Shown here one piece after another: positions 1 through 22,245 of a DNA stretch of 64,000 nt. Source of the DNA: an uncultured virus (IMG/VR IMGVR_UViG_2775507275_000005) (Duplodnaviria > Heunggongvirae > Uroviricota > Caudoviricetes); the IMG/VR virus record IMGVR_UViG_2775507275_000005; one strand, given 5' to 3'. The notes beneath the pieces are model-generated. The model was not told the origin of the DNA, did no database searches, and saw nothing but the letters and a program-made list of their open reading frames with translations. Position 1 is the first letter of the stretch; every line of letters begins with the position of its first letter. The translations under genes and the position numbers were made by a program.

Positions 1-1134
1 ATGCAGCCAAAAATCATATCTGTCTTCAACAATAAGGGTGGTGTCGGCAAAACCACGCTAACGTTTCACTTAGGTCATGCACTTGCAGAACTCGGACATA
101 AAGTGCTTATGGTCGATCTCGATCCACAGTGCAATCTTTCAATCTACGGAATACCCGTTGATAAGATTCAGGCGATATGGGACGCCGAGAATCCTTACAT
201 TGATGAGCCGGGCTTCGCAGACACGCGAAAAATCGTTCCGCCTGCACAATTCCAAAGTCTATGCACCGAACCACGCACAATGCACTTCCTTCTCAAACCC
301 ACTGAGGAAGGAACTGCCGAATTAGATTCGCTCCCGCCCCCGGTGCCCCTCGCTCAGAATCTTGACCTCATTCCGGGGAGACTTACCCTGCACATGTACG
401 AGGAGATGATTTCAAGAAGATGGAGTGATGCGTTTATTGGCCAGCCGTTAGCACTGCGGACTCTCGGGGAAATGCGCCGACTAATCTTGGCCTATGCAAA
501 GCAAAATAATTATCAGTATTGCATTGTAGATACCTCGCCCAGCCTAGGTCCGTTAAACAAGGTAGCCCTAAGCACGGTTGATGCGTTTCTCGTCCCATGC
601 GCACCTGATTTATTTAGCCTGTATGGCGTCAGAAACATTGGTAATTCATTACAACGTTGGTCTCACGAATTCAAGACGCTGTACACACTTATCTCCCCGA
701 CTCGCCGAAATTCCTTGCCAGAGCGAATGGTTCGCTTTCTCGGGTACACCGTGTACAACGCAAAGCTGAGAACAGGGGCGACCGAATGGGATATGGCAAT
801 TGCACATTATGATTACGCCAGACAAATTTCGGAAACAATTTCCGCTCACGTACCCACGGAATTAAGTGCGGGCATCGATGAGGCCGTATTGCGTGAACCG
901 ATAGGCGGCACAGCCGTAATGCACACGCACAACACGTTTCCATCACATGCGCAAAAGTATCATTGCCCGATGTGGCGTCTCCCCACTCTTCCTAATCTCG
1001 AAGCGGGGGATCAAGCGACGATTCAACTTAATCGGGATCGCTATCTCGCGACGCAAGGTGCTTATCATGTATTCGCGAAGAGCGTAGTCGAGCGTACCGA
1101 TGACTTGTCACCGACCGTAGAGGCACATCAATGA
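1..1134 (+). CDS. ParA/MinD-family ATPase (large, island-associated type)
   Basis: Deviant Walker A NNKGGVGKTT, DLDPQCN, Walker B IVDTSPSLG, PCAPDLFS; no parB neighbour inside the window. Confidence 0.9.
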   Translation: MQPKIISVFNNKGGVGKTTLTFHLGHALAELGHKVLMVDLDPQCNLSIYGIPVDKIQAIWDAENPYIDEPGFADTRKIVPPAQFQSLCTEPRTMHFLLKPTEEGTAELDSLPPPVPLAQNLDLIPGRLTLHMYEEMISRRWSDAFIGQPLALRTLGEMRRLILAYAKQNNYQYCIVDTSPSLGPLNKVALSTVDAFLVPCAPDLFSLYGVRNIGNSLQRWSHEFKTLYTLISPTRRNSLPERMVRFLGYTVYNAKLRTGATEWDMAIAHYDYARQISETISAHVPTELSAGIDEAVLREPIGGTAVMHTHNTFPSHAQKYHCPMWRLPTLPNLEAGDQATIQLNRDRYLATQGAYHVFAKSVVERTDDLSPTVEAHQ

Positions 1135-1832
1135 GTGCGGTGTCACCTACTCCTGAGGAGATTGAGGCTGCGCTTGCCGCATTCGAAATGCGGCGAGACG
1201 AGGTAAATTTGTTCCGCAAGCAAGTCGCTGACTTCTTTTCTACCAGTCGGTCACTCAATAGTGCCCCGCTTCCTGCCGTACATTCAGTCAAATCACGCGT
1301 TAAGGACGCGGACCATTTGCGCGAGAAGATCAAACGCAAATGGATGGATGGCCCCATCGACGCGACGAATTTCTTTACTCGCATCAATGATGCAGCAGGT
1401 GTTCGCGTATTGCACTTACATTCGCGACAGTTCGAGACCATCCATCAAGCGACGATTGGTCACATTGAACAAGGGTACTGGTATCTCGCGGAGCCCCCAA
1501 TTGCCTACAGTTGGGACCCTGAGGCCACTGCATTCTTCACAGGCTTGGGTCTGCGCGCCGAAATTCGCGATACGTATTACACGAGCATCCACTACATAGT
1601 GAAGCCTCAAGAACGCGTTGACTTAACTTGCGAGATTCAGGTACGTACACTCTTTGAAGAAGTTTGGGGAGAAATCGATCATGCCCTCAACTACCCTACT
1701 CCAACTACAAGCCTGCCGTGCAAAGAGCAGTTGCGAGTGCTCGCAAAACTGGCATCGACCGGCACGCGATTGGCAGATGCCATCTTCGCGATTCACGAGC
1801 ATGGCACCCAAGACGGCCAGCGCGCCGCTTAA
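1131..1832 (+). CDS. RelA/SpoT-domain small alarmone synthetase-like protein (no hydrolase domain)
   Basis: Synthetase motifs SRVKDADHLREKIKRK, INDAAGVR, YTSIHYIV, CEIQVRTLFEEVWGEIDH; ATGA overlap with the ParA gene. Confidence 0.88.
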   Translation: MSAVSPTPEEIEAALAAFEMRRDEVNLFRKQVADFFSTSRSLNSAPLPAVHSVKSRVKDADHLREKIKRKWMDGPIDATNFFTRINDAAGVRVLHLHSRQFETIHQATIGHIEQGYWYLAEPPIAYSWDPEATAFFTGLGLRAEIRDTYYTSIHYIVKPQERVDLTCEIQVRTLFEEVWGEIDHALNYPTPTTSLPCKEQLRVLAKLASTGTRLADAIFAIHEHGTQDGQRAA

Positions 1833-1944
1833 CACTTGCGATACTCGATCGATGGCGACACGGTAGAATTTCGCCACACTCTCGCCACAGTGAGAGTGCA
1901 TCAGACGTGTATCCAATCGTAACCAAGCGGTTAAGGCGAGATTG

Positions 1945-1957
1945 TAAGTGCTTGAAT
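1945..1957 (-). promoter_or_regulatory. IHF-like site left of the att core
   Basis: ATTCAAGCACTTA on the minus strand, one mismatch to WATCAANNNNTTR. Confidence 0.45.
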
Positions 1958-1970
1958 AAGCGAGGAATTC

Positions 1971-2015
1971 TGGCCCGCCCTACACGATTCGAACGTGTGA
2001 CCTACGGCTTAGAAG
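1971..2015 (-). repeat. 3' half of tRNA-Arg(TCT); prophage att core duplicate
   Basis: Minus strand CTTCTAAGCCGTAGGTCACACGTTCGAATCGTGTAGGGCGGGCCA contains the anticodon loop, T-arm (ACACG-TTCGAAT-CGTGT) and CCA end; the 5' half is absent. Confidence 0.9.
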
Positions 2016-3780: not shown

Positions 3781-4449
3781 TCAGTCAAGGTCGGCGACCA
3801 TCCCGTCAGCGGAATAGAGTTGCAACATCGCGCGAGCAGCCTCGACGTTCGACGTCGTGAGCCATTCTTCCCAATCGACCGGGCGAAGTATGACGACCGA
3901 CCGCTTTTCGTCGCCCGGCTTATGCATGCGCGACATGATGGGATGGCCCTCGGCATTGACCGTGATCATCGCCATCGTGTGCGTCTCTCTTCCATCCTCA
4001 CCCTTCAGGGTGCGCCAGATCCCTGCGACGCAGTACGGCCGCCAATCAGCCAGCCCGATTCGATGCCAGACGTTTCGGCCGGTCTCGTAGCACGGCTCGT
4101 AAATCCATTGCACCGGAATCAGACAGCGGCGACCGGCGCGCCACGCCGGCCCGTATAGCGGCGACTTCCCAAGATTGTCGTCACGCACGTTCATCGTGCT
4201 ACGCATGATCGGCGGCGCTTTGCCCTCAGCCTTCGCTTTATCGATGTTCGCCTTCTGCATCGCACGCGGCCAGTAACCAAACCCCGCGAGGAACGCCTCG
4301 ACGCGCCCGTCGATCATCGCAACCGTGGGCGCAAGATAGTCCGGGTAGATCTCAGGCTCCCAGGGCGCTCTCTTCCATAGGTCAATCAAGCCAAGCCGAA
4401 GCTCGCTGATGCCCGGATCTTCGTCGGGGGCGCGATAGTTGGTGCACAC
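3781..4449 (-). CDS. SOS response-associated peptidase (SRAP/HMCES/YedK family)
   Basis: GTG start giving (M)CTNY with the catalytic Cys2; RRCLIPVQWIYEP, MHKPGDEKRSVVIL; GAGG RBS. Confidence 0.88.
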   Translation of the reverse strand: MCTNYRAPDEDPGISELRLGLIDLWKRAPWEPEIYPDYLAPTVAMIDGRVEAFLAGFGYWPRAMQKANIDKAKAEGKAPPIMRSTMNVRDDNLGKSPLYGPAWRAGRRCLIPVQWIYEPCYETGRNVWHRIGLADWRPYCVAGIWRTLKGEDGRETHTMAMITVNAEGHPIMSRMHKPGDEKRSVVILRPVDWEEWLTTSNVEAARAMLQLYSADGMVADLD

Positions 4450-4500
4450 GGCGGCACCTCTTTTCAGGGGATGGATCACTTCATCATAGTCCAAGATATA

Positions 4501-5308: not shown

Positions 5309-6400
5309 TCAGACTGGATCGCCACTACTGCTCGGAATCGAGCCTTTGGGCAAACGCGGCGTTTTGAGAATCGCAGCCTTCGCACTGAGCAATTCGTCGT
5401 CGCCCACCTCGAAGCGGCGCAGCCACGCTGCCGTTGATTCGCGCGTGTTGTAGACCGGCGCGCCGGCGTTGACCGTGCCGCGCTGAAGAATGTCCATGCT
5501 TTCCGCTCGCACGCGCCGCAGTGCCTTATCGAGGACGACGTAGGCCGGTGGCAAGAACGGGGGTTGCTCCTCGCGCTCGGAGAGACCCGACTCAGGCAAT
5601 ACGCCCGCACGGACGATAACGCCGGCACCGTAATCACCAATGGCAAACCAATTCGGAGGGAGTTCCGACGTCAGCGCGCGAACACCGCCGACGGTGTCCA
5701 ACATGGGCTTGCCGATGGCTGTCAGCCAATTGACGGATTTAATTTTGCCCTTCAGATCGCGGGCTGAAGTCGATCCGGGGTCGCCGACATCGAGCCCCGG
5801 CATAATTTGCGCGATCCAGTATTCCGTCGCCTCATTCTCGTGAGGAGCGGTCGGGGAAAGGTTGACGGCGAAGCCCGCCTGACCTTGAACGGCATCTAAG
5901 CGGCGCGCAGCATCAAAGAACAGTTTTGCGAAGGCATCGGGGTTCTCTTGGACAGCCACAACCGGCCATGAGAACGCAAGGGAGTTGAGACCGCGATTGC
6001 CCATCTTCTCTTGCCACTGGCGCTGACCCACGACCTCGAATCTCCAAAAACTTGCGTCCGAGGCTTGCTCCCCGCCAACGTAGCAGAAGTCGAAACGGTC
6101 CTCAGGACCGAGCTTACTGGCTGCTGCACGCAGAGGCTTGGCTCGCGCGAACGGTTGCGCCGCCTTCCCGTTACTCCATAGGAACGTCAATTTGCATTCG
6201 GGTACAGCACAGTAGTCGTCGAAACAGTCGGCAACCGCCGCGCGGACGGCGGGATCGAATGCACGCTCAAAATAGAGCGACGCGCGCACGACGACGGCCG
6301 CTCCGATTCCACCGGTTGCGTAGCGAGGTTCCAAAAGACCATTGGGCACCAGCGCTTTGCCCTGATTGGCCTTTGCCCATTCGAGAAAATTCTGATCCAT
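5309..6400 (-). CDS. DUF3396 / TsiV-like type VI immunity protein
   Basis: VQGQAGFAVN, PGLDVGD, KIKSVNWLTAIG, GVIVRAGVLP, PPAYV, AWLRRF; directly downstream of VRR-NUC. Confidence 0.85.
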   Translation of the reverse strand: MDQNFLEWAKANQGKALVPNGLLEPRYATGGIGAAVVVRASLYFERAFDPAVRAAVADCFDDYCAVPECKLTFLWSNGKAAQPFARAKPLRAAASKLGPEDRFDFCYVGGEQASDASFWRFEVVGQRQWQEKMGNRGLNSLAFSWPVVAVQENPDAFAKLFFDAARRLDAVQGQAGFAVNLSPTAPHENEATEYWIAQIMPGLDVGDPGSTSARDLKGKIKSVNWLTAIGKPMLDTVGGVRALTSELPPNWFAIGDYGAGVIVRAGVLPESGLSEREEQPPFLPPAYVVLDKALRRVRAESMDILQRGTVNAGAPVYNTRESTAAWLRRFEVGDDELLSAKAAILKTPRLPKGSIPSSSGDPV

Positions 6401-6427
6401 ATTCGCGTCGATGCTAGGAAGGCTCAA

Positions 6428-7162
6428 TTATGGAACGACTATGGGGGGCGGTGGCAACGGCAAACCACCCATGCCAGGCGGGGAAGCAGGACTGCGGTTA
6501 AGTAGTTGACGCAGGGAACGCCCGAGTTCGGAGAGCGCCTCAGAAACCGCTCGGAGCGGACTTTCATTGGCGTCATCGTCGGAACAGTCACAGTCGCCGG
6601 GGCCCATAGTCGCAACCTTTTCGGGCAAACCGGCAATGCGTGCGTAGTCGTCCTCTTGCTCGCGATCCCTTTCTTGAGGCGGGAATTTAATCTCCACCAC
6701 GCTCTTGATGTTGTCCTGAGTTGGCGGCAGAGATCCGTCCTTGACAATCACCACGTCGGGGCGCCGAACAGCACCGGCGCCAGCGGGATACGCATCTTTC
6801 CCGCCAGGCCAGTATTTTTGAATCCAGCCTGGCAAGTAAGGGTGCGGCTCCAAGGGAGACGCGGAGCGCATGATTGGCGACGGAGGGATCTGCGTCATGT
6901 CGTAGTTGACTTCCGACTTGTACGGGCTCTTCCACCCCATCGACCGATCCACGTCGCGCAGGTTGCGCGAAACGCACTGCTGCTTGAGGCTTTGGCCCGA
7001 TGCACCAGTGTCTGGTTCTCGACTGCATACACAAACGGCCTTGCAAATGACCTTTTTATCGACAGGGTCGGGCGTAGCGGGCCGAAGACGCACGGGCGTC
7101 GTTTCGCCCTTCGGCGACATGCCACCTTGACCGGAGTTGGCTCCGTAGGCACGACCACTCAT
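6428..7162 (-). CDS. VRR-NUC (TseV-like) nuclease T6SS effector
   Basis: YKSEVNYDM, RRPDVVIV...VVEIKFP..D...EQEDDY PD-(D/E)XK core; Cys-rich N-terminus. Confidence 0.85.
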   Translation of the reverse strand: MSGRAYGANSGQGGMSPKGETTPVRLRPATPDPVDKKVICKAVCVCSREPDTGASGQSLKQQCVSRNLRDVDRSMGWKSPYKSEVNYDMTQIPPSPIMRSASPLEPHPYLPGWIQKYWPGGKDAYPAGAGAVRRPDVVIVKDGSLPPTQDNIKSVVEIKFPPQERDREQEDDYARIAGLPEKVATMGPGDCDCSDDDANESPLRAVSEALSELGRSLRQLLNRSPASPPGMGGLPLPPPPIVVP

Positions 7163-7719
7163 AAAACACCGCCTTCGCCCGGCCCCTGAGTCGACTCGGC
7201 TGAAAATTGCAACGATCCAGCCGTGTTTGCCTCGTGCCACTGCGTGTAGCCGTCGGCGTCGGTCTGGCCGGATATTGTCCGGCCGTCCGCTGTTTGCAGA
7301 ACGTAGGGATGGTTCGCGATCGGTTTTCCAGTCGTCTCGTCAAATACCTGGAAGCGCCCACGGTATAGATTGTCCGGCCCTCGTGACATCGACTGCGGGA
7401 CGACGCTCTTCCCACCGCCGATCGAATTGCCGCCAGCGGCCCCTGATGTAGGGGCAACCGTGGCGAAGCCTTGCGACGCGATAAGCGTTGCCCCACACGC
7501 GGTCTTGTCTCCGTCTGTAGCAATCGGCCTGTCACCAAACGTCATGTTCAACTCGCGCTTTACGCTGACGATCGGGTAAATCCCACCACACCGCGGACAC
7601 GTCACCATGTCGCCAAGCAATGCGATTGCCCTTCCATGAACCGTGTTAGCGACGTTACAGCCGACCACACGCCCCCCATGCGTGGTCGTGTCCCCCTCGC
7701 AAATAAACGCAAACCCCAT
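7159..7719 (-). CDS. PAAR domain protein with C-terminal extension
   Basis: GDTTTHGGRV, GDMVTCPRCGG, GDKTACGATLIASQ; C-terminal GQTDADGYT motif. Confidence 0.92.
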   Translation of the reverse strand: MGFAFICEGDTTTHGGRVVGCNVANTVHGRAIALLGDMVTCPRCGGIYPIVSVKRELNMTFGDRPIATDGDKTACGATLIASQGFATVAPTSGAAGGNSIGGGKSVVPQSMSRGPDNLYRGRFQVFDETTGKPIANHPYVLQTADGRTISGQTDADGYTQWHEANTAGSLQFSAESTQGPGEGGVL

Positions 7720-8858: not shown

Positions 8859-9404
8859 TCATTTCTGACATCCAGGCGACTGCGGCCGGATCGCGCAGAC
8901 GTAACCCTGGAGGGCCGTCAGTTTGTCGATCTCGCGCTGATCGTCTCCAGCGACTGCAAAAACGCGTTCCGCAACCGCTGGGTCGACGTCTGCGAAGGCG
9001 GCGGCACCATTGCCCACGCCGGCGGCGCTGGAATCGCCGGGCACGCCGTCGCGACCGGCTGCCGTGCAGTTTCGGACGGCGACGCGCAGCCGCTCAGTGC
9101 CAGCGGCAAGAGCAGCCCGCAGGCTGCGACTCTCTGCTTCATGCTCGTTCCTCTCCTTCGTGGTTCGTTGGTCGACGGCGGCCACCGCCGACGCCGCCGC
9201 ATCGTGCGCGGCGATCGCGCGCTGCTCGGCGTCGAGCGCCGCTTGCGAGATCGCGTCCAACGCTTCGGCGTGCCGCAGTGCGTCGAGCGCTCGCGCGACC
9301 TGCTCGTCGGCAAGCCGACGTGCGCCGATCAGGTGTTCAATCCCAGCGCCGGCCGCCATGCCAAGCAGCGCGGCCAACAGATACGGGGTTGCTTTCGGCA
9401 TCAC
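8859..9404 (-). CDS. Rz: Rz-like i-spanin
   Basis: N-terminal TM helix, coiled coil, C-terminal LTALQGYV; downstream of the endolysin. Confidence 0.85.
   Translation of the reverse strand: MMPKATPYLLAALLGMAAGAGIEHLIGARRLADEQVARALDALRHAEALDAISQAALDAEQRAIAAHDAAASAVAAVDQRTTKERNEHEAESRSLRAALAAGTERLRVAVRNCTAAGRDGVPGDSSAAGVGNGAAAFADVDPAVAERVFAVAGDDQREIDKLTALQGYVCAIRPQSPGCQK
8918..9142 (-). CDS. Rz1: Rz1-like o-spanin lipoprotein embedded in Rz
   Basis: MKQRVAACGLLLPLALSG-C lipobox, Pro-rich CPAIPAPPAWAM; alternative frame inside Rz. Confidence 0.85.
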   Translation of the reverse strand: MKQRVAACGLLLPLALSGCASPSETARQPVATACPAIPAPPAWAMVPPPSQTSTQRLRNAFLQSLETISARSTN

Positions 9405-9898
9405 AGTCCCCGCTCACAGATCGCGCGCTCTTCCGCGCGCCGCTTCACCAAGCCGGGCATCTCCCGGCCCCGCGCCGTCACCCATTGCGGGCGACCGTCG
9501 TCGGACTCGTTAATCGCGCGGCACGCACTACGCAGGTCGCCCGCGTTGAAGCGCTTCGCCGTCGTGCTGTTGCAGTAGGCGGTCGGCCCAATGTTGTCCG
9601 CGAAGCTCACAGCTGCCGCGAGTTGATACGGCCGCCCCTTCAGGCCCGGCGTGCATCGGAGCACGCTCTCCGCGTGCGCGATCAGGTGCGCTTCGAGCGA
9701 CTGGCGACACTCGGCCTCGCTGTACACCTTGCCGACGACGACGTCCCGCGTGTCGCCCATGCACTTCGTCGGAATGCCGACCGGATCGAGATACCCGACC
9801 AGCTTGACGCCCTCGAATTTCGGGACAATGGAAAAAAGAAGGGCTGCCGCAGCAGCCCCCACAACACCCACAAGAGTCGTCCTCCGCATTTCAGCCAT
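9401..9898 (-). CDS. GH24 lysozyme, SAR-type endolysin
   Basis: N-terminal Ala/Gly-rich SAR helix; FEG...YLDPVGIPTKCMGDT catalytic region; GLVKRRAEERAIC. Confidence 0.92.
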   Translation of the reverse strand: MAEMRRTTLVGVVGAAAAALLFSIVPKFEGVKLVGYLDPVGIPTKCMGDTRDVVVGKVYSEAECRQSLEAHLIAHAESVLRCTPGLKGRPYQLAAAVSFADNIGPTAYCNSTTAKRFNAGDLRSACRAINESDDGRPQWVTARGREMPGLVKRRAEERAICERGL

Positions 9899-10103
9899 CG
9901 TGCTTCTCCATCTCCAGAATGCGCATGTCCGATTCGCGCTGTTCCCGACGATCCTTGCGCCACATAAAAAAGAAGTTGAGCCCAAACGTCGCGAATGCCG
10001 TCATGATCCCGACGATCACGCCGATATCCGTCAGCGTCAGTGAAGACGCAACAGCTGTAACACTTCCAACGTAGCTCGCCACCTCACTCGGACTCGCTCG
10101 CAT
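9891..10103 (-). CDS. Holin
   Basis: 70 aa, hydrophobic core, charged C-terminus, immediately upstream of the endolysin. Confidence 0.8.
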   Translation of the reverse strand: MRASPSEVASYVGSVTAVASSLTLTDIGVIVGIMTAFATFGLNFFFMWRKDRREQRESDMRILEMEKHDG

Positions 10104-10117
10104 CAGCCCCTCGCAAT

Positions 10118-10145
10118 AAAAAAGGGCCGCCATATTTGGCGGCCC
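10118..10145 (-). terminator. Intrinsic terminator between tail and lysis genes
   Basis: GGGCCGCCA-4nt-TGGCGGCCC followed by T6 on the minus strand. Confidence 0.75.
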
Positions 10146-10146
10146 G

Positions 10147-10863
10147 TTAAACGATTCCCGTCCCGTCAAGCACCATGAATCGCGAGTGATACTGTTCGCG
10201 AAAGCATGCGATATTCGGCGTTCTCCCACCGTTGTACAGTGCAGTTCCCCAAGACACATTCCCACCGTCAACGCGAATCGACGAGAGCTCAACCACGCCC
10301 GGGTCATAGCTCCACGCTCGATGAACGGAGTAGATGGCGGAAATCAGCACTGGCACGCCGTACGACCGAGAATGCCACGGCGGCGAAGGTGCGCCCTCGA
10401 CTGTCCATCCAACACCGTTCATGTAATCCTCGAAGATCACATCGAGGACCCGGAGAAACGGCTTCGACGAATCCGCGACCAATCTCCCGTTTGCATCGAA
10501 GACTTGTAACCCGAAGTTTCCCGCGGCGACGGGCACTTGGTCGAACACGAACAGTCGGACGTTACATGGTCGCTCGGTGATAAACGTCACGGAATACGAA
10601 CTTCCATTTCGCTTCGCACTCCACAGCGTTATTCCCACTGCGCCAGATGCGAGTACCGCGTACATCGGACCAGCCACTGACGAGAAAGTGAAAGTAACGC
10701 TTGGAAGATCTATCATGAACGTCCTTCCAGCATCATTGCGCGCCAAAGGCAACGAGCCGACCGCAGAATCCGCCGACATCGATTGCACCATCTGATAGTT
10801 CGGCGTTCGCCCGTCGATCTGATACACACCAGTATCAGTGAATGCCTGAAATCCTGCCGGCAT
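10147..10863 (-). CDS. Tail-tip associated protein
   Basis: MPAGFQAFTD..., FGLQVFDANGRLVADS; position downstream of gpJ. Confidence 0.7.
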   Translation of the reverse strand: MPAGFQAFTDTGVYQIDGRTPNYQMVQSMSADSAVGSLPLARNDAGRTFMIDLPSVTFTFSSVAGPMYAVLASGAVGITLWSAKRNGSSYSVTFITERPCNVRLFVFDQVPVAAGNFGLQVFDANGRLVADSSKPFLRVLDVIFEDYMNGVGWTVEGAPSPPWHSRSYGVPVLISAIYSVHRAWSYDPGVVELSSIRVDGGNVSWGTALYNGGRTPNIACFREQYHSRFMVLDGTGIV

Positions 10864-11171
10864 CAATACACTCCAAAAACGATCCACCCGGGGACTCGGG
10901 TGTACGCGTTCGATCCGCTTGAGTTCGGGCTATACGACCAACTGATTCCCCCTGCATTAATCGAGACGACTGGCGACGGCTCGGCGGCCGAAACACGAAA
11001 GAAAATCTGTTGCGGCATGAAGGCCCAAAACGGCTCCCCGCCCGACATATCCGCCGCGACACTCCCATCGCTCCCACCAGTCCACGCGATCCCGACCACC
11101 CGCCCTGCTCGCGACTTCGCGTCAAGGATCAGGCGGCCGACGCCATCGAATATCTGAAGCCCCGCTGTCAT
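10863..11171 (-). CDS. Small tail-tip associated protein
   Basis: MTAGLQIFDGVGRLILD...IVFGVY, coupled to gpJ. Confidence 0.7.
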   Translation of the reverse strand: MTAGLQIFDGVGRLILDAKSRAGRVVGIAWTGGSDGSVAADMSGGEPFWAFMPQQIFFRVSAAEPSPVVSINAGGISWSYSPNSSGSNAYTRVPGWIVFGVY

Positions 11172-14100
11172 TGTTGCCATACTCCCCAACGCACGCGAAG
11201 AACCCCGTTCGCGTCGTACGTGCGCCCCCCATTGCTATCGACCACCGTTCGGTTTCCCTGCCCATCAGTCGAATTGATCTCGAACCACCCACTCTTATCG
11301 AGCCGCCACCCCTGCCGGCCCGCAATGTAGTTGTCGGACTGGATGTAACTGCCGATCATCGCGTTCGTGATCCAGCCCGCACCGATCAGCGCTTGGCGCA
11401 AGAACACCTGCCCGCCCTGTACGACGAACGGCGCACCAATCACGCCCGCGCCGTCTTCGTCGATCACCGCAAACCGCTTCGCCGACACAAGCACCTGTGA
11501 TTCGACGACGCCGCTTTCGTTGTCGATGCCCACGCCGATCGCCGCCATGTATTTGCGCCCGTCGACGGTCGTCTGAACCTTGACCTGATACGACGCCGAG
11601 ACGCGCCCGTTCAGGTCGGCATAGGACTTCGCGACGGTCTGCACCGCGGCCACGTTGTCGTTCACCTTTGCCTGAACCGTCGTGATGTCCTGCGCCATCG
11701 CGCGCTCGCCTTCGACGCGCGCGATTGCCTCCTTCTGCACAGCAGCGTTCAGCAGGTTCGAGCTCGAGCGCGCCTGAGCCGCCACCGTGTCAACCTTCTT
11801 CGCAACCGCCATGTCGCCCTCGGCAATCGCCGACTGCAACGACCAGACGCCGGCATTGAGTGTCTCGTCGCCCGCGTAAATCGTCGCGTCGCCGGCCATC
11901 GGTGGGGTGATCAGGTCGATCGGCTCGCGCAGATCCGTGCTGAGCGCCGATCTCCCGATCTGCCCGACAAAATACTTCTCGTAGTCGCTTTGATCCGTGC
12001 TCGGCTGCCCCTGCACGCCCGGCCCCTTCGCCGGAAACCACGGTCCGACGTTGCCCGACGTGTCGACCAGTCGCGCCCAAAAATAGAAGACCTGCCCGAC
12101 CGCGAGCCCCTGATACGACGTCGACGCCTGCGGATACGCGAAGTCGGAGAATTTGACCGCGTCGTCGCGGCTCGGCGTGCGGCTGTACCAGATCTCCGTA
12201 CGCTGCGTGTCGCCCGCGGACCCGTCGCCCGGGAACGCCCATTTCAGATCGATCCCGTACACGATGCCCACCGCGGTCAGCGACACGACCGACGGCGGCG
12301 GACTAGTTTTCCCCGTGAGCTGCGTGTCGACGCCGTAGGCTGGAATCGACGTCACGCCGAGTGCGTTCTCGGCGCGCACGCGCGCGAGGTACTTCCCCCG
12401 ATAGATGCCCGACACTTCGACCTGCAAGCCGCCCGTCGACGGCGCACGTACCCACTCGCCGTTATCCTTCCGCCATTCGGCGACGTAGCTCGTCGCGTGG
12501 CTCGCCGCGTCCCACGCGATCACCATCGACGTTTTCGATATGCCCTGATCGACCACCGAATACGTCGACAGGCGCACGTTCGACGGCGGCGGCTGCACTG
12601 ACGGCGGAACGATCGTGATCGGCCGTTGCTGGATCTGTGCGCCGTCGTCGATCGCCGCGTACTTCCCCGGCTCGTACTGCGTCGCGTTGATCGTGTAGAC
12701 GATCTGGCCGTCGTCGTCGCTTTCCTGCACGCTCACCACGCGATACTGCTGCGCGGCGAGCTCGCGGCTTTCGACCATCCATACTGCGCCCGGCACCGGA
12801 TCGGCGTCGAAGCGCTGGGCGAGCGTGACCGTGTCGCCGTCGACCGACTTGACCGCGCGCGCCTGCGCAATACCCGACAGCAGAATCGCCGTGAAGCGAT
12901 CGCCCACCGTGATCGTCGGCGCCTTGTCGAGCGTGATCGTTTCGCCGGCCACAGCGCGGATGCGCCCGCCGATCCGGCGGCCGGCCCTCTTTGGATCGGC
13001 GACCGCAATCACCTGTCCCGGCGCACAAAGCGTCCCGTCGAGCCCGACCTGAAACGACACCGTGCCGGTTTCGTATCGCGACGTCAGCAGCAACCAGCGC
13101 CCGAGGCGGTGCGCCTGCGCCTGCGACGTGCAGCCAAACGCTGTGACTTCCGTCTTGATGACGCCGTATCGCGCGATCCCGTCGTCGTCCTGCACTGCTT
13201 CGACAGCCTGCTTGTACTGGTTCGTCGGATCGTTGTAGCTGACGAGCGCGACCGTGTAGCGTGTCTTGCGCTCGCTACCAACGTACTTGAACGCACCGCC
13301 GACGACATTCGCGGCCGTGTAGAGATAGACCGGATCGGACGGCATGTCCGCCGACGCGACGACCGACCCGGCGCCCCAGTACGAAATGCCGCGAAAAACG
13401 CTCGCGATATCCTGCACGACCTTGAACGCGTCCGCCTTTGTCTGAATCACGCAGTTGCACGTAAAGCGCGGTTCCTTGCCGCCCTTCCCATCCGATACCA
13501 GTTCGTCACAGTGACGCGCGATCGCGTACAGCGCCCACTTGTCGACCATCGACGCATCGACACGGTCGCCCAATCCGTAGAGCTTGTCGAGCAATAGGCC
13601 GTAGTAGACCCAAGCCGGATTGTTCGTCCATGCCATCTTGAACGTGCCATCCCACGTGCCCGAATACGTGCGGGTTTCCGGGTCGTAATTTGTCGGAACA
13701 CGGAAGATCATCCCCCGCACGTGATACGAGCGCACCGGAACGCTTGAGAACGAGCGCGCGTCGAAGGTCATGCCGACGAGCGCCGTCATCGGATAGCGGA
13801 GCTTCCGATCGATGATCTCGGTGATCGCCTCGATGTTGACCGCATCGGCAATCGTGGCCGTGTGCGCGTTCGGCGTGATGCGGCGCACACGGATCAGCCA
13901 ACCATTTTTCGCGCGCGGCAACTCGATCCGATGCGAGCGCTCGTAGAGCGACGTCGTCTTGCCATCGAACGCGCCAGCCAGCACCTGCGCATACGACCCG
14001 CCGTCGACCGACAAGTCGATCGCATAGTCGACGCGATAGCCCGTGACGTTGCCGTTCGACGTGTCCTGACGCTGTAGCGCCGGCACGCCGAAGCGCACAC

Positions 14101-14479
14101 GCACTGCGGTCAGTTGCGTGTTCTGAATCTGGCGCACCCACGGCGCATCGGACGTCAGCGGCACGCCGACGCCCGCCTCGCGCTCGACGGCCGGAAAGCC
14201 CGGGATGTAGTCCTGATCCTGCGTGCCGATTCGAACGTCGACGGTGTAGTTCTGGAAGTTCAGCGAGCCGTCCGCGTTCTGGATCGGCGTGCCGTCGAGA
14301 TAGACCGATTGCAGGCCGTTCACCAGCCCGACGATCGGCCCCTCCGAGATCACGTCAAGCACCTTCGCGCGCGCGATCGAATGCAGGCTGTCGGGCGATT
14401 CACTGCTGCCACCGCCACCACCACCGCCCTTGGCGCCGTAGATGCGCTTCAACCCGCCTTCAGCATGGACCTTCTTCAA
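11168..14479 (-). CDS. Tail tip / host specificity protein (lambda gpJ-like)
   Basis: GAKGGGG, DVISEGPIVGL, WDGTFKMAWTNNPAW, FGCTSQAQAHRLGRW, IQSDNYIAGRQGW; TTG start. Confidence 0.95.
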   Translation of the reverse strand: MKKVHAEGGLKRIYGAKGGGGGGGSSESPDSLHSIARAKVLDVISEGPIVGLVNGLQSVYLDGTPIQNADGSLNFQNYTVDVRIGTQDQDYIPGFPAVEREAGVGVPLTSDAPWVRQIQNTQLTAVRVRFGVPALQRQDTSNGNVTGYRVDYAIDLSVDGGSYAQVLAGAFDGKTTSLYERSHRIELPRAKNGWLIRVRRITPNAHTATIADAVNIEAITEIIDRKLRYPMTALVGMTFDARSFSSVPVRSYHVRGMIFRVPTNYDPETRTYSGTWDGTFKMAWTNNPAWVYYGLLLDKLYGLGDRVDASMVDKWALYAIARHCDELVSDGKGGKEPRFTCNCVIQTKADAFKVVQDIASVFRGISYWGAGSVVASADMPSDPVYLYTAANVVGGAFKYVGSERKTRYTVALVSYNDPTNQYKQAVEAVQDDDGIARYGVIKTEVTAFGCTSQAQAHRLGRWLLLTSRYETGTVSFQVGLDGTLCAPGQVIAVADPKRAGRRIGGRIRAVAGETITLDKAPTITVGDRFTAILLSGIAQARAVKSVDGDTVTLAQRFDADPVPGAVWMVESRELAAQQYRVVSVQESDDDGQIVYTINATQYEPGKYAAIDDGAQIQQRPITIVPPSVQPPPSNVRLSTYSVVDQGISKTSMVIAWDAASHATSYVAEWRKDNGEWVRAPSTGGLQVEVSGIYRGKYLARVRAENALGVTSIPAYGVDTQLTGKTSPPPSVVSLTAVGIVYGIDLKWAFPGDGSAGDTQRTEIWYSRTPSRDDAVKFSDFAYPQASTSYQGLAVGQVFYFWARLVDTSGNVGPWFPAKGPGVQGQPSTDQSDYEKYFVGQIGRSALSTDLREPIDLITPPMAGDATIYAGDETLNAGVWSLQSAIAEGDMAVAKKVDTVAAQARSSSNLLNAAVQKEAIARVEGERAMAQDITTVQAKVNDNVAAVQTVAKSYADLNGRVSASYQVKVQTTVDGRKYMAAIGVGIDNESGVVESQVLVSAKRFAVIDEDGAGVIGAPFVVQGGQVFLRQALIGAGWITNAMIGSYIQSDNYIAGRQGWRLDKSGWFEINSTDGQGNRTVVDSNGGRTYDANGVLRVRWGVWQQ

Positions 14480-15060
14480 ACCTGATCCTCCGCATAGATT
14501 CCCGAACTGACCACCTTCGAGCCGACGACCATTTCGCCGATGACGAGCGGCACCGGCTCGCCCTGCGCAGCGCTGTTCACGGGTCCGTTGAAGTAGTACG
14601 ACGTGCCGTTGTTTGCCGTTCCCGCGAGGCCGGCCTGTTGCGGACTGAGCATCTGCACGATGCCGCCCAGCGCCATCGACGCGCCGAGCCCCATCAGCGA
14701 TGTGCCCCACGGCTGCGCGAAACCGAACGTCGCCACCGCGCCAACGGCAACGAGTGCGGCGCCGAGAATCGTGTTGAAGAGCCCGCCGCGCTTACTGCCG
14801 ACGATTACCGGCGCAATGCGGATCTCGTCGCGCCCGACCGGATGCTCGAGCTCGTCCTCGTCGAGATTGCGCCGGCCGTTGAACACGGCGAACGTGAGGC
14901 CGGCGTCGCGCGCCGACGTCAGGAACGCACGGAAGCCGGGAATCAGCACCGACAACGCCCGCACCGCCTCCGTGGTCGACGAAACCGCCAGACGATGAAC
15001 TCTTCCGAAACGCCCACCGAGCACCCCATACAACCTTATCGTGCGAAGCGTCTCGTTCAC
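14476..15060 (-). CDS. Tail assembly protein I (lambda gpI-like)
   Basis: IRLYGVLGGRFG, IRIAPVIVGSK, SYYFNGPVNSAAQGEPVP. Confidence 0.92.
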   Translation of the reverse strand: MNETLRTIRLYGVLGGRFGRVHRLAVSSTTEAVRALSVLIPGFRAFLTSARDAGLTFAVFNGRRNLDEDELEHPVGRDEIRIAPVIVGSKRGGLFNTILGAALVAVGAVATFGFAQPWGTSLMGLGASMALGGIVQMLSPQQAGLAGTANNGTSYYFNGPVNSAAQGEPVPLVIGEMVVGSKVVSSGIYAEDQV

Positions 15061-15674
15061 TTTCGATCTCCCATATAGCGCAGTACCGTCGTGCAGCAGT
15101 CGGCCCACATCCCGCCCCACACCGCGCGCGTCGACAGACGCCCGTGCATGTGGTGCAGAAACTGCCCGTCACCGAGATACACGCCCGCGTGATTCGGCAC
15201 GCCGTTCTTGCTGCGGATCTGCATCAGCAGCACGTCGCCGACCTGCAACGTCACGTCGCGGCCGACGTCGAGAAAGCCGGCGTCCTGATAGTGGTTGAGG
15301 TAGAGGTTCGACCCGCCGTCGTTCCACCACTCGTCCTCGCGCTCGAAGTCGGGCAGCGAGACGCCGCGCTCACCGAGATACCAGTCGCGCACGATCCCGC
15401 CGCGCGCCTTCGAGATAACGTGGTCGACAGCAGTTGCCGGCGTCACGCGCCCGGCTTGCAAACAGGGCTGACAGAGGCCGCTGTCGCGGCGCAAGATGCG
15501 CTGCCTGATCTTGTCCCACGCGGTTCCGTATCCCCGCGCATGACGATTGCCGCGCACCGCGTCGGACTTCCACTTGACGGCCTCGTGCGCATGCTGATCG
15601 CAGTACGACTTACCATCCGCGACGAGCGCACCGCACCCCCGGTGCTTGCACGGCTTCATCGGGCGTCGTGCCAT
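15057..15674 (-). pseudogene. In-frame fusion of the terminase-associated HNH N-terminus to the gpK (NlpC/P60) C-terminus
   Basis: MARRPMKPC..RGYG..LCQPC..VDHVISKARGG joined at ~15396 to IVRDWY..LPDFERED..NHAGVYLGDG..LHH. Confidence 0.85.
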
Positions 15675-15734: not shown

Positions 15735-15992
15735 ATGCACTCAATCGAATTCACCAAACAAGCCGCCCAAGCCCTCAAGGCAATGCCGCGCAACATTTCG
15801 GCGACGATTCGGGCGAAGATCGATGCATTGGCAGTTGATCCCTACGCACCGAATCCGAACGCGAAGAAGTTGGCGGGCCAGCCCGGCTACCGGCTCCGAG
15901 TTGGCGATTGGCGTGTGTTGTACGAAATCGAAGATGGCCGCGTCGTGATCGTTGTGCTGGCCGTCAAACCCCGTGGAGGTGCCTACAAATGA
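15735..15992 (+). CDS. RelE/ParE-family toxin
   Basis: IEFTKQAAQAL, KKLAGQPGYRLRVGDWRVLYEI, KPRGGAYK. Confidence 0.9.
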   Translation: MHSIEFTKQAAQALKAMPRNISATIRAKIDALAVDPYAPNPNAKKLAGQPGYRLRVGDWRVLYEIEDGRVVIVVLAVKPRGGAYK

Positions 15993-16375
15993 CCGAAGTT
16001 CAATTTATCGAGCAGGACGGCCACCGGGCCTTTGCCGTGGTCCCCATCGAACTGTGGGACCGCGTGAAGGACCTAATCGAAGATCTCGAAGATGAAGCGC
16101 TCTACGCGCAGGCCAAGGCAAGCGACGACGGCCGCCGCATCCCGGCCGCTGTGCTCGATGCTGAACTGGCGGGCGATCACCCTGTTCGAGCTTGGCGCAA
16201 CCATCTGCGCATGACGCAAGATGCGCTCGCCGCAGCAGCCGGCATCAGCAAACCGTATCTCAGCCAGATCGAAACCCGACAGCGCGTCGGCACTACCGAC
16301 GTGCTGTCTAAGATCGCCAGCGCACTTACCGTGCCCGTCGACGACTTGATCGAGCCGCCGCCCGCACAGTCGTAA
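15989..16375 (+). CDS. XRE-HTH antitoxin (HigA-like, toxin-first order)
   Basis: FAVVPIELW N-terminus; MTQDALAAAAGISKPYLSQIET HTH; ATGA overlap. Confidence 0.88.
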   Translation: MTEVQFIEQDGHRAFAVVPIELWDRVKDLIEDLEDEALYAQAKASDDGRRIPAAVLDAELAGDHPVRAWRNHLRMTQDALAAAAGISKPYLSQIETRQRVGTTDVLSKIASALTVPVDDLIEPPPAQS

Positions 16376-16506
16376 CGCAATGTCGCTCGTCTCGTCGGCC
16401 TGCGTAATGCAGTCGCATGAACTCGATGACCGCCACAGCCGCACGCACCCCGTGCGGACGACGGCGAAACATCAGAACAGCCATATCAGCTCCGGGCGCG
16501 GAAACG

Positions 16507-16537
16507 AAAAAGCCCGCGAGGCTTTCACCTTGCGGGC
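16507..16537 (-). terminator. Intrinsic terminator
   Basis: GCCCGCAAGG...CCTCGCGGGC followed by T5 on the minus strand. Confidence 0.6.
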
Positions 16538-16562
16538 AACCATATCAGCCGGCAATGTCGCT

Positions 16563-16847
16563 TCAGCGACGATCAACGGTGACAGTAGACTTCCCCACAG
16601 CAGACGCGTATTGGTTGAGCGCATAAACGCATTTCATGAACTCTGCGTCAATGTTCCGCGCCTCCGTCAACACCTCCTGAACCAAATCAGCATCAAATAC
16701 CGCAATATGCATGCGCCCCGGAGGCACCCCGTGCCCAACCGCATCTCTGAGTTTGCCAAGTGCCTTGTTGCGTTGCTCCCGAAGCTGCTCAAATATTTCA
16801 AGCGTCGCGTGGTAACGCCCGAGCACTTCGTAATTCGGTTCAGCCAT
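16563..16847 (-). CDS. Hypothetical protein
   Basis: GGAGG RBS, MAEPNYEVLGRYH, 94 aa, flanked by terminators. Confidence 0.7.
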   Translation of the reverse strand: MAEPNYEVLGRYHATLEIFEQLREQRNKALGKLRDAVGHGVPPGRMHIAVFDADLVQEVLTEARNIDAEFMKCVYALNQYASAVGKSTVTVDRR

Positions 16848-16906
16848 TGTTCCTCCATAAGGTAAATGACCTAAGAAGTATAACGACCCCATAGCGCGCT
16901 CCAATG

Positions 16907-16938
16907 AAAAAGCCCCGCCGGTTCGCCGAGCGGGGCTT
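16907..16938 (-). terminator. tR'-like terminator
   Basis: AAGCCCCGC...GCGGGGCTTTTT just downstream of the late promoter. Confidence 0.7.
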
Positions 16939-16968
16939 CTCGCATGCAACTTGTGCAGCATGGCGAAA

Positions 16969-16997
16969 ATCATATACTGCTGTAACAAGAGCGTCAA
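16969..16997 (-). promoter_or_regulatory. pR'-like late promoter
   Basis: TTGACG-17-TATGAT facing the morphogenesis/lysis genes and followed closely by a terminator. Confidence 0.7.
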
Positions 16998-17041
16998 GTG
17001 GGTATGTGGCACGCTCGCGCGGTTCAGTGGAGAACTAGGGA

Positions 17042-17566
17042 ATGACGGCGAACGCGAAGGTGAGCAATGAAAAGAAGAACCTCAACCGCCTGGCCGGCGA
17101 GCTTCTGGTCGCCTCGCGCCTGACTCAGCGTGGCTATATGGTGGCTCTGCAATGGGGCACAACTATCGGATACGACGTTCTCGTGTTCGACAAGAGCGGC
17201 AACTCAGCCTTCCTTGAAATCAAATCGTCCGCGTCGAACTCCCGCCGCTGGATACTCCAACAGAAATACGCGAACCCGCGCGCGGACAAGATACCAGCGG
17301 ACCGCCGATTTGTTTGCTGTGTGGATCTGGCAATCAAGGGCAAAGAGCCGGATGTCTACGTGTTCCCCGCAACAGTTGTGGCCGAAGGACTGCACTACTT
17401 CTTCGCCAGCAAGTTCCCTAACAGCCCCAGTTATCACTTGTCGCTCGACTTCAAGCCGCAATATCGCACGAAAGAGAACGGGGTGCTAACGGTCGGGCAA
17501 TACATCCACGCCGAGACTTACTTGGAAAACTATGCCGCGATCGGAATCGAAACCGTGACGGTGTAG
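17042..17566 (+). CDS. PD-(D/E)XK-family nuclease-like protein
   Basis: LAGELLVASRL..RGY...GYDVLV...FLEIKS pattern. Confidence 0.7.
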   Translation: MTANAKVSNEKKNLNRLAGELLVASRLTQRGYMVALQWGTTIGYDVLVFDKSGNSAFLEIKSSASNSRRWILQQKYANPRADKIPADRRFVCCVDLAIKGKEPDVYVFPATVVAEGLHYFFASKFPNSPSYHLSLDFKPQYRTKENGVLTVGQYIHAETYLENYAAIGIETVTV

Positions 17567-17788
17567 GACATCACCGGACAACCGGATGCACTGACATTTA
17601 ACTCGACTCACACGCGATTCGCTGTCGGCCCCGATAGTCACGAGCGCCGATATCGGCCAGAAACGGTCGTTCTGAAATCGTCGGCACATCGTTGGCGACT
17701 CATGCCCTGAGACAACACCGCCAGCATATGGACACCAATCGACGTGAGCGAAATCGAACGCTGGGAGGACTAGCCGCCTTATCCCTCC

Positions 17789-18343
17789 TCACACTGCATC
17801 GCTGGCTCCGCTATCGGGGGCTAGTGCGGATGTGGGGGCAACCAGACTCCTTGCAAACGCTGACGCGACGCGTTTTCCCGATGCCAAGTAGTTTTGAAGG
17901 TCAGTCGTTGTGACGTTGGCAAATGACGCGTTCAGGTTATGAACGAAAGAGTGCCGTGTATTAAGCAGGCTCTCATACGCTGCGAAAATATCGGCGCTGC
18001 CGGACGCGAGTCGCCGCTGGTTCAACCTGTTAACGAGCCTAACGAAATCCTTCTCGAATGCTGTGTCGAACCTCGCTAAAAGATCTCTCAGCGCTTTATA
18101 CCTGATTCTGGCATTGAATTTTGCTAAGTCGGCTTCGAGGACCGCGTGAAGGTATCTGTTCTGTTTGTCACAAAAGTCGAGGACAACGCTCTTGATTAGC
18201 GTTTCCAGATGCGTTGCGATGGTTACAGCACAGAAACCAATGTAGCGGTCCCTGAGGGGGTCAGATGCTAAGTTATCGACCTGTTCACAAAGATGGTCGA
18301 CTAAAGCATCCACTGCGACAATCTCAGTCGCATTGAGCTTCAT
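17789..18343 (-). CDS. HEPN-domain protein (MAE_28990/RiboL-PSP-like)
   Basis: Helical protein with ATHLET and the RxxxxH motif LLNTRHSFVH. Confidence 0.78.
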   Translation of the reverse strand: MKLNATEIVAVDALVDHLCEQVDNLASDPLRDRYIGFCAVTIATHLETLIKSVVLDFCDKQNRYLHAVLEADLAKFNARIRYKALRDLLARFDTAFEKDFVRLVNRLNQRRLASGSADIFAAYESLLNTRHSFVHNLNASFANVTTTDLQNYLASGKRVASAFARSLVAPTSALAPDSGASDAV

Positions 18344-19425: not shown

Positions 19426-19692
19426 GACGTCCTCTATTGTCGCTACGCGATGGACGCGCAGCTGCCGCTGTTTTGAGCAGTTTATCATGTGGTGATCGAG
19501 CATCAGCGAGCGAATCAGGGAGCGATGATTTCGGACATCGAGCGGCCGTTTTGGAGATGGGCGTCTGACTGTTCCGGGTCGGTAACGGTCGAAACATGAT
19601 TCACTACTCTTGAATTGACGCTGACCGCGGCGCCCCCCCCTGCGCGACACTGGCACTGTAACGCAACATCGGCGGCCCACCGATAACGCCCA

Positions 19693-20352: not shown

Positions 20353-20653
20353 GGAAGAACGCGGAACGGGGTGCCCCAGTACACCAGCCAGTTGATCAGC
20401 ACGGTCCGTATCTCCTCGCTTCGAGGAAACCGCATTTCGATTTGGCCGTCGTCGAGCTCGACACCCTCAAGCGGACAGCCGGGGAATGCAATGAACCTGT
20501 TCCCGGTAAGCGCTTCACTTCTCCGTATCGCCATCTTTGCCACCGGTTCCACGATGTCGCTCATATTGAAGTAGAGATGAGCGCTCACGACATCCGCTTC
20601 AAGCAATCGCAGATCAGCCAGTTACCCGAACTCAAGCTCACCTTCTTCTTCAC
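20349..20653 (-). pseudogene. Hypothetical phage protein, frameshifted
   Basis: GTG start coupled to the upstream stop gives KKKVSLSSGNWLICD, then the frame shifts to LEADVVSAHL..; span is 305 nt. Confidence 0.5.
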
Positions 20654-22238: not shown

Positions 22239-22245
22239 AGGCTCC

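Follow-up and report, generated by a model that had tools for sequence, protein, structure and literature searches.

The first 1,832 nucleotides of a 64,000-nucleotide stretch of DNA from an uncultured virus (IMG/VR record IMGVR_UViG_2775507275_000005; this whole stretch is referred to here as the window) carry two overlapping genes, the first for an ATPase of the ParA/MinD type and the second for a small alarmone synthetase (SAS). These genes constitute a conserved two-gene module, a fixed pair that is horizontally mobile, self-contained, patchy in its distribution, prone to transfer and compositionally foreign to the DNA around it. We propose that the pair is a mobile module for conflict or defence: the ATPase would act as an ATP-dependent switch or sensor and the synthetase, assigned indirectly to the PRel subfamily, as a growth-arresting effector; a probability of approximately 0.5 is given to this reading.

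The two genes and their conservation as a pair

The homologues of the ATPase share with the protein of the window the N-terminus M-x-x-I-S-x-FNNKGGVGKT; hence, base 1 of the window is the natural start codon of this gene (Table 1). The stop codon of the ATPase gene and the start codon of the synthetase gene overlap in the tetranucleotide ATGA, and a ribosome-binding-like motif, AGAGG, is located inside the ATPase gene, 7 nt before the synthetase start. An earlier inspection of the letters of the window (the sequence-only reading) had described both open reading frames (ORFs) and the ATGA overlap with exactly the coordinates given here, and had considered the two genes visibly AT-richer; in agreement with this, their G+C content is 0.511 versus 0.619 in the rest of the window, the lowest value among 311 sliding windows of equal size. 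A scan of the region for promoters and terminators revealed nothing bearing on the pair.

At least 2,251 relatives of the synthetase of similar length are present in the protein collection. When one genome per species was scanned, 184 stretches encoding a synthetase relative were found, and the best 80 loci were kept. In 77 of these 80 loci, tblastn detected a homologue of the ATPase directly upstream of the synthetase gene and on the same strand, so the conservation of the pair, one of the checks proposed in the sequence-only reading, is confirmed. The three exceptions are L065, where just 284 nt of contig are available upstream, L012, with an unknown ORF of 211 aa upstream, and L059, where the synthetase (P0124) is fused to a methyltransferase domain and a vWA protein, but no ATPase, is encoded upstream. 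Clustering of the 880 ORFs of at least 70 aa present in the loci gave an ATPase cluster that covers 77 loci and a synthetase cluster that covers 74, the next one being found in 4; no third gene is therefore conserved across the 80 loci. In 69 of 71 loci the intergenic gap lies between -23 and +20 nt, a 4-nt overlap being present in 18, with starts taken as those of the longest ORFs. The sequence-only reading had also pointed out that the ATPase has no ParB neighbour in the window, and this holds for the whole set: Pfam found no ParB domain in the 145 ORFs that lie closest to the pair, on either side, in the 80 loci, nor in the 22 ORFs of the window between 2.4 and 22.3 kb. On this lack of ParB in the DNA covered, which for the window begins at base 1, together with the absence of a third conserved cluster, a ParABS partition system is rejected.

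An independent sample gave the same picture, since a strong orthologue of the ATPase (544–609 bits) was found in three of 401 genomes of the phylum, and the synthetase is encoded immediately downstream in all three. The pairwise distances of both proteins, calculated for 69 pairs, are correlated (r 0.67, a value reached by 0 of 999 permutations), and the mean divergence is 0.45 for the ATPase and for the synthetase alike. This correlation indicates that the pair is co-inherited as a unit, which by itself does not prove an interaction. Three loci (L043, L061 and L071, all of them from metagenome-assembled genomes (MAGs) or draft assemblies) show a broken ATPase gene beside an intact synthetase ORF.

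The ATPase

The protein encoded by the first gene matches the Pfam families AAA_31 (1.4e-29) and CbiA (5.6e-16). Its deviant Walker A motif, KGGVGKT, contains the signature lysine K12 and the Walker A lysine K17, and residues K12, G13, G14, G16, K17, T19, D39, D41 and D177 are invariant in 35 homologues. By this motif, the Walker A' and B aspartates and a Soj-like fold, the protein is a ParA/MinD (SIMIBI, deviant Walker A) ATPase. The structural model, which has a mean predicted local distance difference test (pLDDT) value of 88 and a predicted TM-score of 0.90, consists of a Soj/ParA core to which a helical insertion of approximately 60 aa (around residues 50–110) and a C-terminal helical extension of approximately 120 aa (around residues 255–370) have been added. 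All ParA/MinD proteins form ATP-sandwich dimers; from this established knowledge of the family and the invariance of K12, K17, D39/D41 and D177, the ATPase is expected to be catalytically competent, that is, to dimerise in an ATP-dependent manner and to hydrolyse ATP.

The best match in the PDB is 3pg5 (DIP2308), with a Foldseek E-value of 5.7e-15 and a profile E-value of 1.4e-37 over residues 1–349. The next matches are Soj/ParA (Foldseek E-value of approximately 2e-10), McdA, MinD and NifH, and the profile match to these proteins is limited to the P-loop region; for Soj/ParA it spans only about 45 N-terminal residues. The ParA and RepA partition models of NCBIfam likewise match the N-terminal 45 residues only, with 69 bits versus a cut-off of 180. 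The ATPase belongs, as these matches indicate, to the uncharacterised DIP2308 (PDB 3pg5) branch of ParA. Besides the catalytic residues, a stretch of the C-terminal extension (residues 300–328) contains the invariant positions P300, G302, H308, H310, N311, T312, P314, Q318, P323, W325 and P328; it is mostly coil in the model, it is partly present in 3pg5 and no role has been assigned to it. Residue C44, in the sequence DPQCN, is nearly invariant among the homologues.

The synthetase and its subfamily

RelA_SpoT (PF04607, 1.3e-13) is the sole Pfam family found in the product of the second gene, and it follows that no hydrolase (HD) domain is present, as the sequence-only reading had it for this RelA/SpoT-type protein. 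Twelve residues, R56, K58, D87, G90, R92, Y150, S152, H154, E168, Q170, R172 and H184, are invariant in 25 synthetase homologues and align with the catalytic motifs of RelP; D87 is located in the motif INDAAG. A profile of these 25 homologues matches the RelP and RelQ chains with an E-value of approximately 2e-8 in two blocks that contain the catalytic motifs. With PF04607, a basic ATP-binding motif, the DxxGxR aspartate, Y-x-S-x-H, the EIQxRT glutamate and no HD domain, the protein is an SAS. The nearest folds to its model (pLDDT 83) are RelQ (5ded) and RelP (6ewz), followed at a distance by CapRel (7ztb) and Rel with modest TM-scores (0.4–0.47). The most conserved stretch of the protein is a C-terminal helix (residues 197–219), with 18 of 23 positions invariant and a low model pLDDT (56–65); we suggest that it may serve as a contact or oligomerisation surface. 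The median isoelectric point of the family, 6.1, is mildly acidic, and this weakly favours nucleotide substrates over tRNA.

The assignment of the synthetase to the PRel subfamily of Jimmy et al. (2020; PMC7229694) is indirect, given that it was reached through shared strains and motifs. Two strains of their Dataset S2 are identical to those of our loci L033 (Methylibium sp. Root1272) and L044 (Paenibacillus senegalimassiliensis SIT18); according to the table, PRel is the only SAS of the former and one of five RelA/SpoT homologues in the latter. Since, in addition, the pRel rows of their alignment file carry the same motifs as the synthetase described here, this synthetase is placed in PRel. 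The main text of that article is silent on PRel, and the FlaGs sheets consulted cover only the groups of toxic SAS (toxSAS) and RelQ, RelP and RelV. PRel is a catalogued but unstudied subfamily, a member of which has probably been knocked out once, in Pseudomonas syringae (see below).

Variants of the synthetase were also observed. A few proteins of the same family (P0121–P0126, about 50% identical) have a fused C-terminal part, which is an unknown domain of approximately 290 aa except in one, P0124 of L059, where it is the methyltransferase domain mentioned above, and P0127, a more distant synthetase (32% identical), is fused to CYTH.

Distribution and mobility

Phylum counts and the tree were obtained from 68 full-length loci, which represent ten phyla: Pseudomonadota (29 loci), Bacteroidota (17), Bacillota (9), Methanobacteriota (3), Acidobacteriota (3), Campylobacterota (2), and Elusimicrobiota, Cyanobacteriota, Myxococcota and Nitrospirota (1 each), plus one locus with its phylum unassigned. 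The ATPase tree requires at least 18 changes of phylum versus a possible minimum of 9, a number that errors in MAG binning may inflate. Within this tree, L037 and L041, from a Myxococcota MAG and a Methanobacterium MAG, encode nearly identical ATPases (branches of 0.046 and 0.008), which reflects either a very recent transfer between domains or a binning error. In the 23,583 genome rows covered, the table of Jimmy et al. lists 'PRel' 41 times (PMC7229694).

A remnant of an attachment site is located just after the synthetase stop codon. Its first counterpart in the nearest genome is a tRNA-Arg(TCT) site that shows 99% identity with the window over 72 nt (blastn); a second site of the same genome, 43 kb away and without a tRNA, shows 92% identity over 136 nt. 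This remnant indicates that the island junction noticed in the sequence-only reading is real, and that it is a junction with an island or prophage region situated at higher coordinates. ARAGORN called no tRNA gene in the window, and Rfam revealed no RNA gene in the region of the pair. The pair is absent from the nearest genome and from the nearest provirus record. The mobility of the module is therefore concluded from its spread over ten phyla with at least 18 changes, its occurrence in 3 of 401 genomes, its absence from the nearest genome, its low G+C content and the adjoining attachment-site remnant.

Gene neighbourhoods

The surroundings of the pair were compared with PADLOC, using up to three ORFs of at least 100 aa on each side (376 ORFs from 79 loci, as L013 had none) and a threshold of E≤1e-30. 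Matches near the pair were obtained in 21 of the 79 loci (8/32, 8/29 and 5/18); these are single-protein matches for which there is no matched control, and consequently the figure is suggestive only. They include type I restriction-modification (RM) systems (L003, L021, L043 and L064), Old (L028), AbiEi/AbiEii (L065), LmuB/Lamassu (L062), SIR2-pAgo (L048), PD-Lambda-1 (L047), IetA (L080), HEC-01/AriA-like (L037) and several PDC candidates. In L021 (326–8182) the pair is inserted in a type I RM operon, with hsdR/hsdS on one side and hsdM on the other. Pfam identified among the nearest neighbours NACHT, HEPN, Mrr, YhcG nucleases, PIN, HigB, MazF and an MNT-type nucleotidyltransferase, as well as mobile-type genes such as transposases, recombinases, the P2 GPA replication protein and the DUF927 primase. 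The flanks of the pair are variable and often rich in defence genes, and the pair itself is not in PADLOC. Two matches of its own proteins were rejected: PDC-M28B for the ATPase covers a P-loop of only 38 residues (4.5e-7), and PDC-S33 for the synthetase is insignificant (0.0096).

Related ATPases with other partners

The sample of 401 genomes also contains 11 loci with ATPases of approximately 330 aa with about 30% identity to that of the window over nearly the full length. In five of them (L090, L093, L097, L101 and L102) a gene with SLFN_AlbA_2 and HATPase_c_4 domains lies upstream with a 4-nt overlap; in another (L095) only HATPase_c_4 was called in the upstream gene; in L099 (1312–3170) a SIR2_2 gene follows downstream, again with a 4-nt overlap, and for the remaining four no partner was identified. 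SIR2 and Schlafen-type genes are activated effectors in known systems. The pairs formed by these shorter ATPases with SIR2_2 or SLFN/HATPase_c_4 genes may be sister modules of the one described here, and this swapping of partners resembles that of sensor–effector defence families, pointing by analogy to a general family of sensors.

Partner choice also varies on the synthetase side: in L051 and L060 the synthetase is accompanied by an ATPase of another subfamily, 28–29% identical to that of the window and 40% identical between both loci. Two loci of one genus, L091 (1498–1719) and L094 (1498–1692), carry only an N-terminal fragment of the ATPase (65–74 aa, 51–57% identical) and no synthetase; these fragments are probably decayed copies.

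What the pair may do

If the pair is a conflict or defence module, the ATPase would form an ATP-sandwich dimer and serve as a nucleotide-dependent switch or sensor, and the PRel synthetase, whose active site is intact, would be licensed or released by the ATPase to pyrophosphorylate purine nucleotides. The product would most likely be (p)ppGpp, and the outcome an arrest of growth of the abortive-infection or phage-defence type. Physical contact of the two proteins, activation or inhibition as the mode of control, the nature of the trigger and of the product, and the part played in defence are all inferred here. The observations in its support are the obligatory linkage of the genes, their co-inheritance, the invariant catalytic residues of both proteins, the patchy distribution, the frequent defence genes in the flanks and the fact that related ATPases are paired with other effector-type genes. 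By analogy, support also comes from two precedents discussed in the last section, the activation of the GRel synthetase by its partner in PANGU and the phage resistance conferred by GiPD474. As to the product, the isoelectric point of 6.1 and a probable orthologue in P. syringae pv. tomato DC3000 that is reported to contribute to (p)ppGpp give a hint towards (p)ppGpp.

Several points weigh against this proposal. In the literature on DC3000, the synthetase figures as one of the ordinary contributors to the stringent response (PMC7146990). Neither protein matched a system model of PADLOC-DB v2.0.0 over its full length, the proportion of 21 in 79 loci has no matched control and remains suggestive, and at least three of the PADLOC matches look generic (an ABC-F-type protein in L008, UvrD plus PD-(D/E)XK in L014 and a PolA-like protein in L077). 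Many loci are found among housekeeping genes, with Pfam identifying as nearest neighbours the glutaminyl-tRNA synthetase GlnRS, EF-G, PGK, SAICAR synthetase and FtsZ. Orthologues are rare on plasmids, with one in 72,556 records, which is a Caballeronia replicon of 1.68 Mb; none was found in the phage collection, where no record matches the ATPase of the window at E≤1e-15. In addition, simple co-inheritance, with no interaction, would be enough to produce the correlated distances, and a search for fusions of the ATPase and the synthetase found none, which is weak evidence.

ParA/MinD proteins are positioning ATPases, and together with the housekeeping surroundings of many loci this fits a different role, possible but clearly less likely than defence, in which the pair would be an accessory physiological module of alarmone metabolism. 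The ATPase would place or regulate the synthetase, for instance at the nucleoid or according to the ATP/ADP level of the cell, and the pair would be a third input into the stringent response. An argument for this role comes from DC3000, which is listed with PRel, SpoT and RelA, PRel being its sole SAS (Jimmy et al. 2020, PMC7229694). According to a study of this strain, the production of (p)ppGpp relies on RelA, SpoT and a protein named 'fpRel', and three deletions were required to obtain a ppGpp0 strain; in the triple mutant, PSPTO_0856, which adjoins the ParA-family gene PSPTO_0855, was down by a log2 value of -3.17 (PMC7146990). In another report pspto_0856 is listed alongside spoT and dksA (PMC7952654). 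From these tables, the order of the locus tags and the annotation, it is probable that fpRel is the product of PSPTO_0856 and a member of PRel, with PSPTO_0855 encoding the ParA-like partner. If this orthology holds, (p)ppGpp is produced in vivo by a member of the family and the host survives. The role of 'fpRel' in DC3000 may deserve a second look, and this probable pair makes the question directly testable, since deletion of its synthetase and a link of that protein to ppGpp are already on record.

A physiological role is at odds, however, with the rarity of the pair in the 401 genomes and in the table of Jimmy et al., and with its specificity for strains: it is listed as unique to DC3000, and it is absent from the B. 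ubonensis strain of that table and from the nearest genome. It is also at odds with the transfer of the pair between phyla and also to archaea, where the classical stringent response is missing, with its foreign composition, and with neighbourhoods that are variable and contain defence and mobile genes.

Somewhat less likely still is that the genes form a classical toxin–antitoxin (TA) addiction pair, with a synthetase that would be toxic alone and an ATPase acting as antitoxin, either by sequestration (type II) or by counteraction (type IV), and with no sensing of phages. A tight, overlapping bicistron in which the putative antitoxin gene precedes the other, the order of most TA loci and of the validated toxSAS, would agree with it, and so would the patchy, mobile distribution and the TA toxins or TA-like genes found near some loci; large ATPase antitoxins are known, moreover, from the NetFlax network (Ernits 2023). 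Nevertheless, a 370-aa ATPase with all its catalytic residues conserved exceeds the needs of a neutraliser, and the related ATPases are paired with genes of the activated-effector type. The only studied SAS of similar layout that depends on a partner, that of the PANGU preprint, is reported as non-toxic alone, and the probable orthologue of DC3000 is reported as active without lethality (PMC7146990). The three loci with a broken ATPase gene and an intact synthetase point in the same direction, weakly in view of their MAG or draft origin. The sequence-only reading had called the pair a candidate defence or toxin–antitoxin system in which the ATPase, as sensor or antitoxin, would gate the synthetase; the conserved pairing, the absence of ParB and the nearby defence genes sustain such a candidate system in general terms, whereas the loci with a broken ATPase and the non-lethal probable orthologue of DC3000 lean against a classical antitoxin.

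That the ATPase is an orphan ParA, a remnant of plasmid or integrative and conjugative element partition that merely happens to lie beside an unrelated synthetase gene, is highly improbable: the closest characterised fold is Soj/ParA and the N-terminus is recognised by the ParA and RepA models of NCBIfam, but these matches stay far below the partition cut-off or within some 45 residues, no ParB domain was found in the 145 nearest ORFs, 77 of the 80 loci and ten phyla show the pairing, and one orthologue only is on a plasmid-class replicon.

The defence proposal can be extended, tentatively and with more doubt than the proposal itself, to all DIP2308-type ATPases, which might be the common sensor of widespread and unrecognised modular two-gene immune systems. 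As ATP-bound dimers on intact nucleoid DNA, or at a normal cellular level of ATP, these ATPases would keep the partner silent; destruction of the chromosome by a phage, or a phage-induced fall of ATP, would make the ATPase switch its state, and the switched ATPase would license interchangeable effectors, namely the PRel synthetase, a SIR2 NADase or a Schlafen/HATPase_c_4 protein. If this were true, the PRel branch, which extends from Proteobacteria to methanogenic archaea, would be the first in which a ParA-type ATPase gates an alarmone-based defence.

Other features of the window

Downstream of the pair the window shows the attachment-site remnant, a gene for an SOS-response-associated peptidase (SRAP), a PAAR–TsiV cassette, a lambdoid prophage remnant and a GmrSD/HEPN pair (Table 1). 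The cassette is of the type VI secretion system (T6SS) type, and its TsiV protein is of the 'immunity for VRR-NUC' type. The lambdoid remnant includes genes for lysozyme, a J-like tail tip protein of 1180 aa, the tail assembly protein I and an NlpC/P60 protein K; helix-turn-helix, DUF1064 and replication-like genes come next after these tail and lysis genes. The nearest provirus record has 38% of the words of the window in common. The GmrSD/HEPN pair, 16 kb from the ATPase–synthetase pair, is probably a defence pair of a known type in the prophage region, and in L030 the gene just upstream of the ATPase–synthetase pair likewise encodes a HEPN RiboL-PSP protein.

Table 1. Coordinates of the features of the window discussed in the text.
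Feature	Coordinates	Strand	Remarks
ParA/MinD-type deviant Walker A ATPase	1-1134	+	377 aa; ATG at base 1; AAA_31
Coupling region	1119-1134	+	AGAGG (1119-1123) inside the ATPase gene; ATGA stop/start (1131-1134)
Small alarmone synthetase, PRel subfamily (indirect assignment), synthetase domain only	1131-1832	+	233 aa; RelA_SpoT PF04607
Attachment-site remnant	1880-2015	-	3' 45 nt of tRNA-Arg(TCT) (1971-2015) and downstream flank (1944-1970, 27 nt); 1880-2015 is the part matched by the second site of the nearest genome
SRAP gene	3781-4494		basis Pfam
T6SS-type cassette	5309-7719	-	three genes, listed below
TsiV	5309-6427	-
Unknown ORF	6428-7240	-	270 aa
PAAR	7159-7719	-
Lambdoid prophage remnant, first part	9401-15674	-
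Lambdoid prophage remnant, second part	15908-22337
GmrSD/HEPN pair	17789-19680	-	GmrSD_N/DUF262-type protein (PADLOC NsnA 7e-72, PD-T4-2_A 5e-49) overlapping a HEPN RiboL-PSP gene

Comparison with known systems

The sequence-only reading knew of no characterised system made of a ParA and an SAS, and the literature searched bears it out: no ParA-type partner of an SAS was found described, although the neighbourhood of PRel might be shown in parts of Jimmy et al. (2020) outside the scope of this search, namely Dataset S1 and the SI appendix. One close group are the toxSAS (FaRel, FaRel2, PhRel, PhRel2 and CapRel; PMC7229694), which like the pair of the window consist of a stand-alone protein with a synthetase domain, encoded in a conserved and often overlapping bicistron with a partner of a different fold, and show a patchy and mobile distribution. 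On the other hand, PRel is outside the five validated subfamilies of that study, and a 370-aa ParA/MinD ATPase is not among the six antitoxins it describes (PMC7229694). The acidic isoelectric point of 6.1 also argues, weakly, against a tRNA substrate, in contrast with the toxSAS that modify tRNA.

ParA proteins, like YejK, bind the nucleoid non-specifically, and for the ATPase described here a logic of the type 'released from damaged DNA', as in PANGU, is conceivable by analogy. PANGU type I is composed of a YejK-like nucleoid protein, Pag1A, and a GRel synthetase, Pag1B; the DNA-bound partner activates GRel to produce pppGpp, and neither gene is reported as toxic alone (bioRxiv 10.64898/2026.04.06.716658). 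As presented in that preprint, the likeness with our pair comprises a two-gene operon with the partner first, an SAS as effector and a modular family of partners that is found with other effectors. The differences are that here the partner is a P-loop ATPase (AAA_31/CbiA, ParA fold) and not YejK, and that the synthetase is PRel and not GRel, has no C-terminal acidic DNA-mimic domain and ends in one long helix. Membership in PANGU is ruled out by this different partner and SAS class, and no ParA partner is named for the ten clusters of the preprint (bioRxiv 10.64898/2026.04.06.716658).

The ATPase resembles the ParA, Soj and MinD ATPases in its overall fold, in the deviant Walker A motif with its signature lysine and in the Walker A' and B aspartates, but it differs from them in the lack of a partner gene of the ParB or MinE type and in its insertion and C-terminal extension. 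DIP2308 from Corynebacterium diphtheriae, a structural-genomics target deposited as an 'uncharacterized protein' (PDB 3pg5), is a relative over the full length; both proteins contain the motifs FNNKGGVGKTT, DPQCN, PSLG and DLFS and are 25–27% identical, and a literature search for 'DIP2308' found no paper. GiPD474, a ParA/MinD-like (AAA_31) protein of a Gifsy prophage, confers phage resistance and is comparable to the ATPase described here as a ParA/MinD-type protein with an extra domain of unknown function that acts in phage defence; in contrast, it is a single-gene system with no synthetase (PMC12724215).

Alarmone synthetases are thus known as TA toxins (toxSAS), as fused sensors (CapRel) and as effectors switched on by a nucleoid protein (PANGU, a 2026 preprint). 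A ParA/MinD ATPase as obligatory partner would add a new mode of control for these enzymes, and would assign a function to the PRel subfamily and to a branch of ParA whose sole structure is 3pg5. The PRel subfamily had already been catalogued and one orphan structure was available for the ATPase branch; the pairing of a ParA-type ATPase with a small alarmone synthetase was not found in the literature searched.

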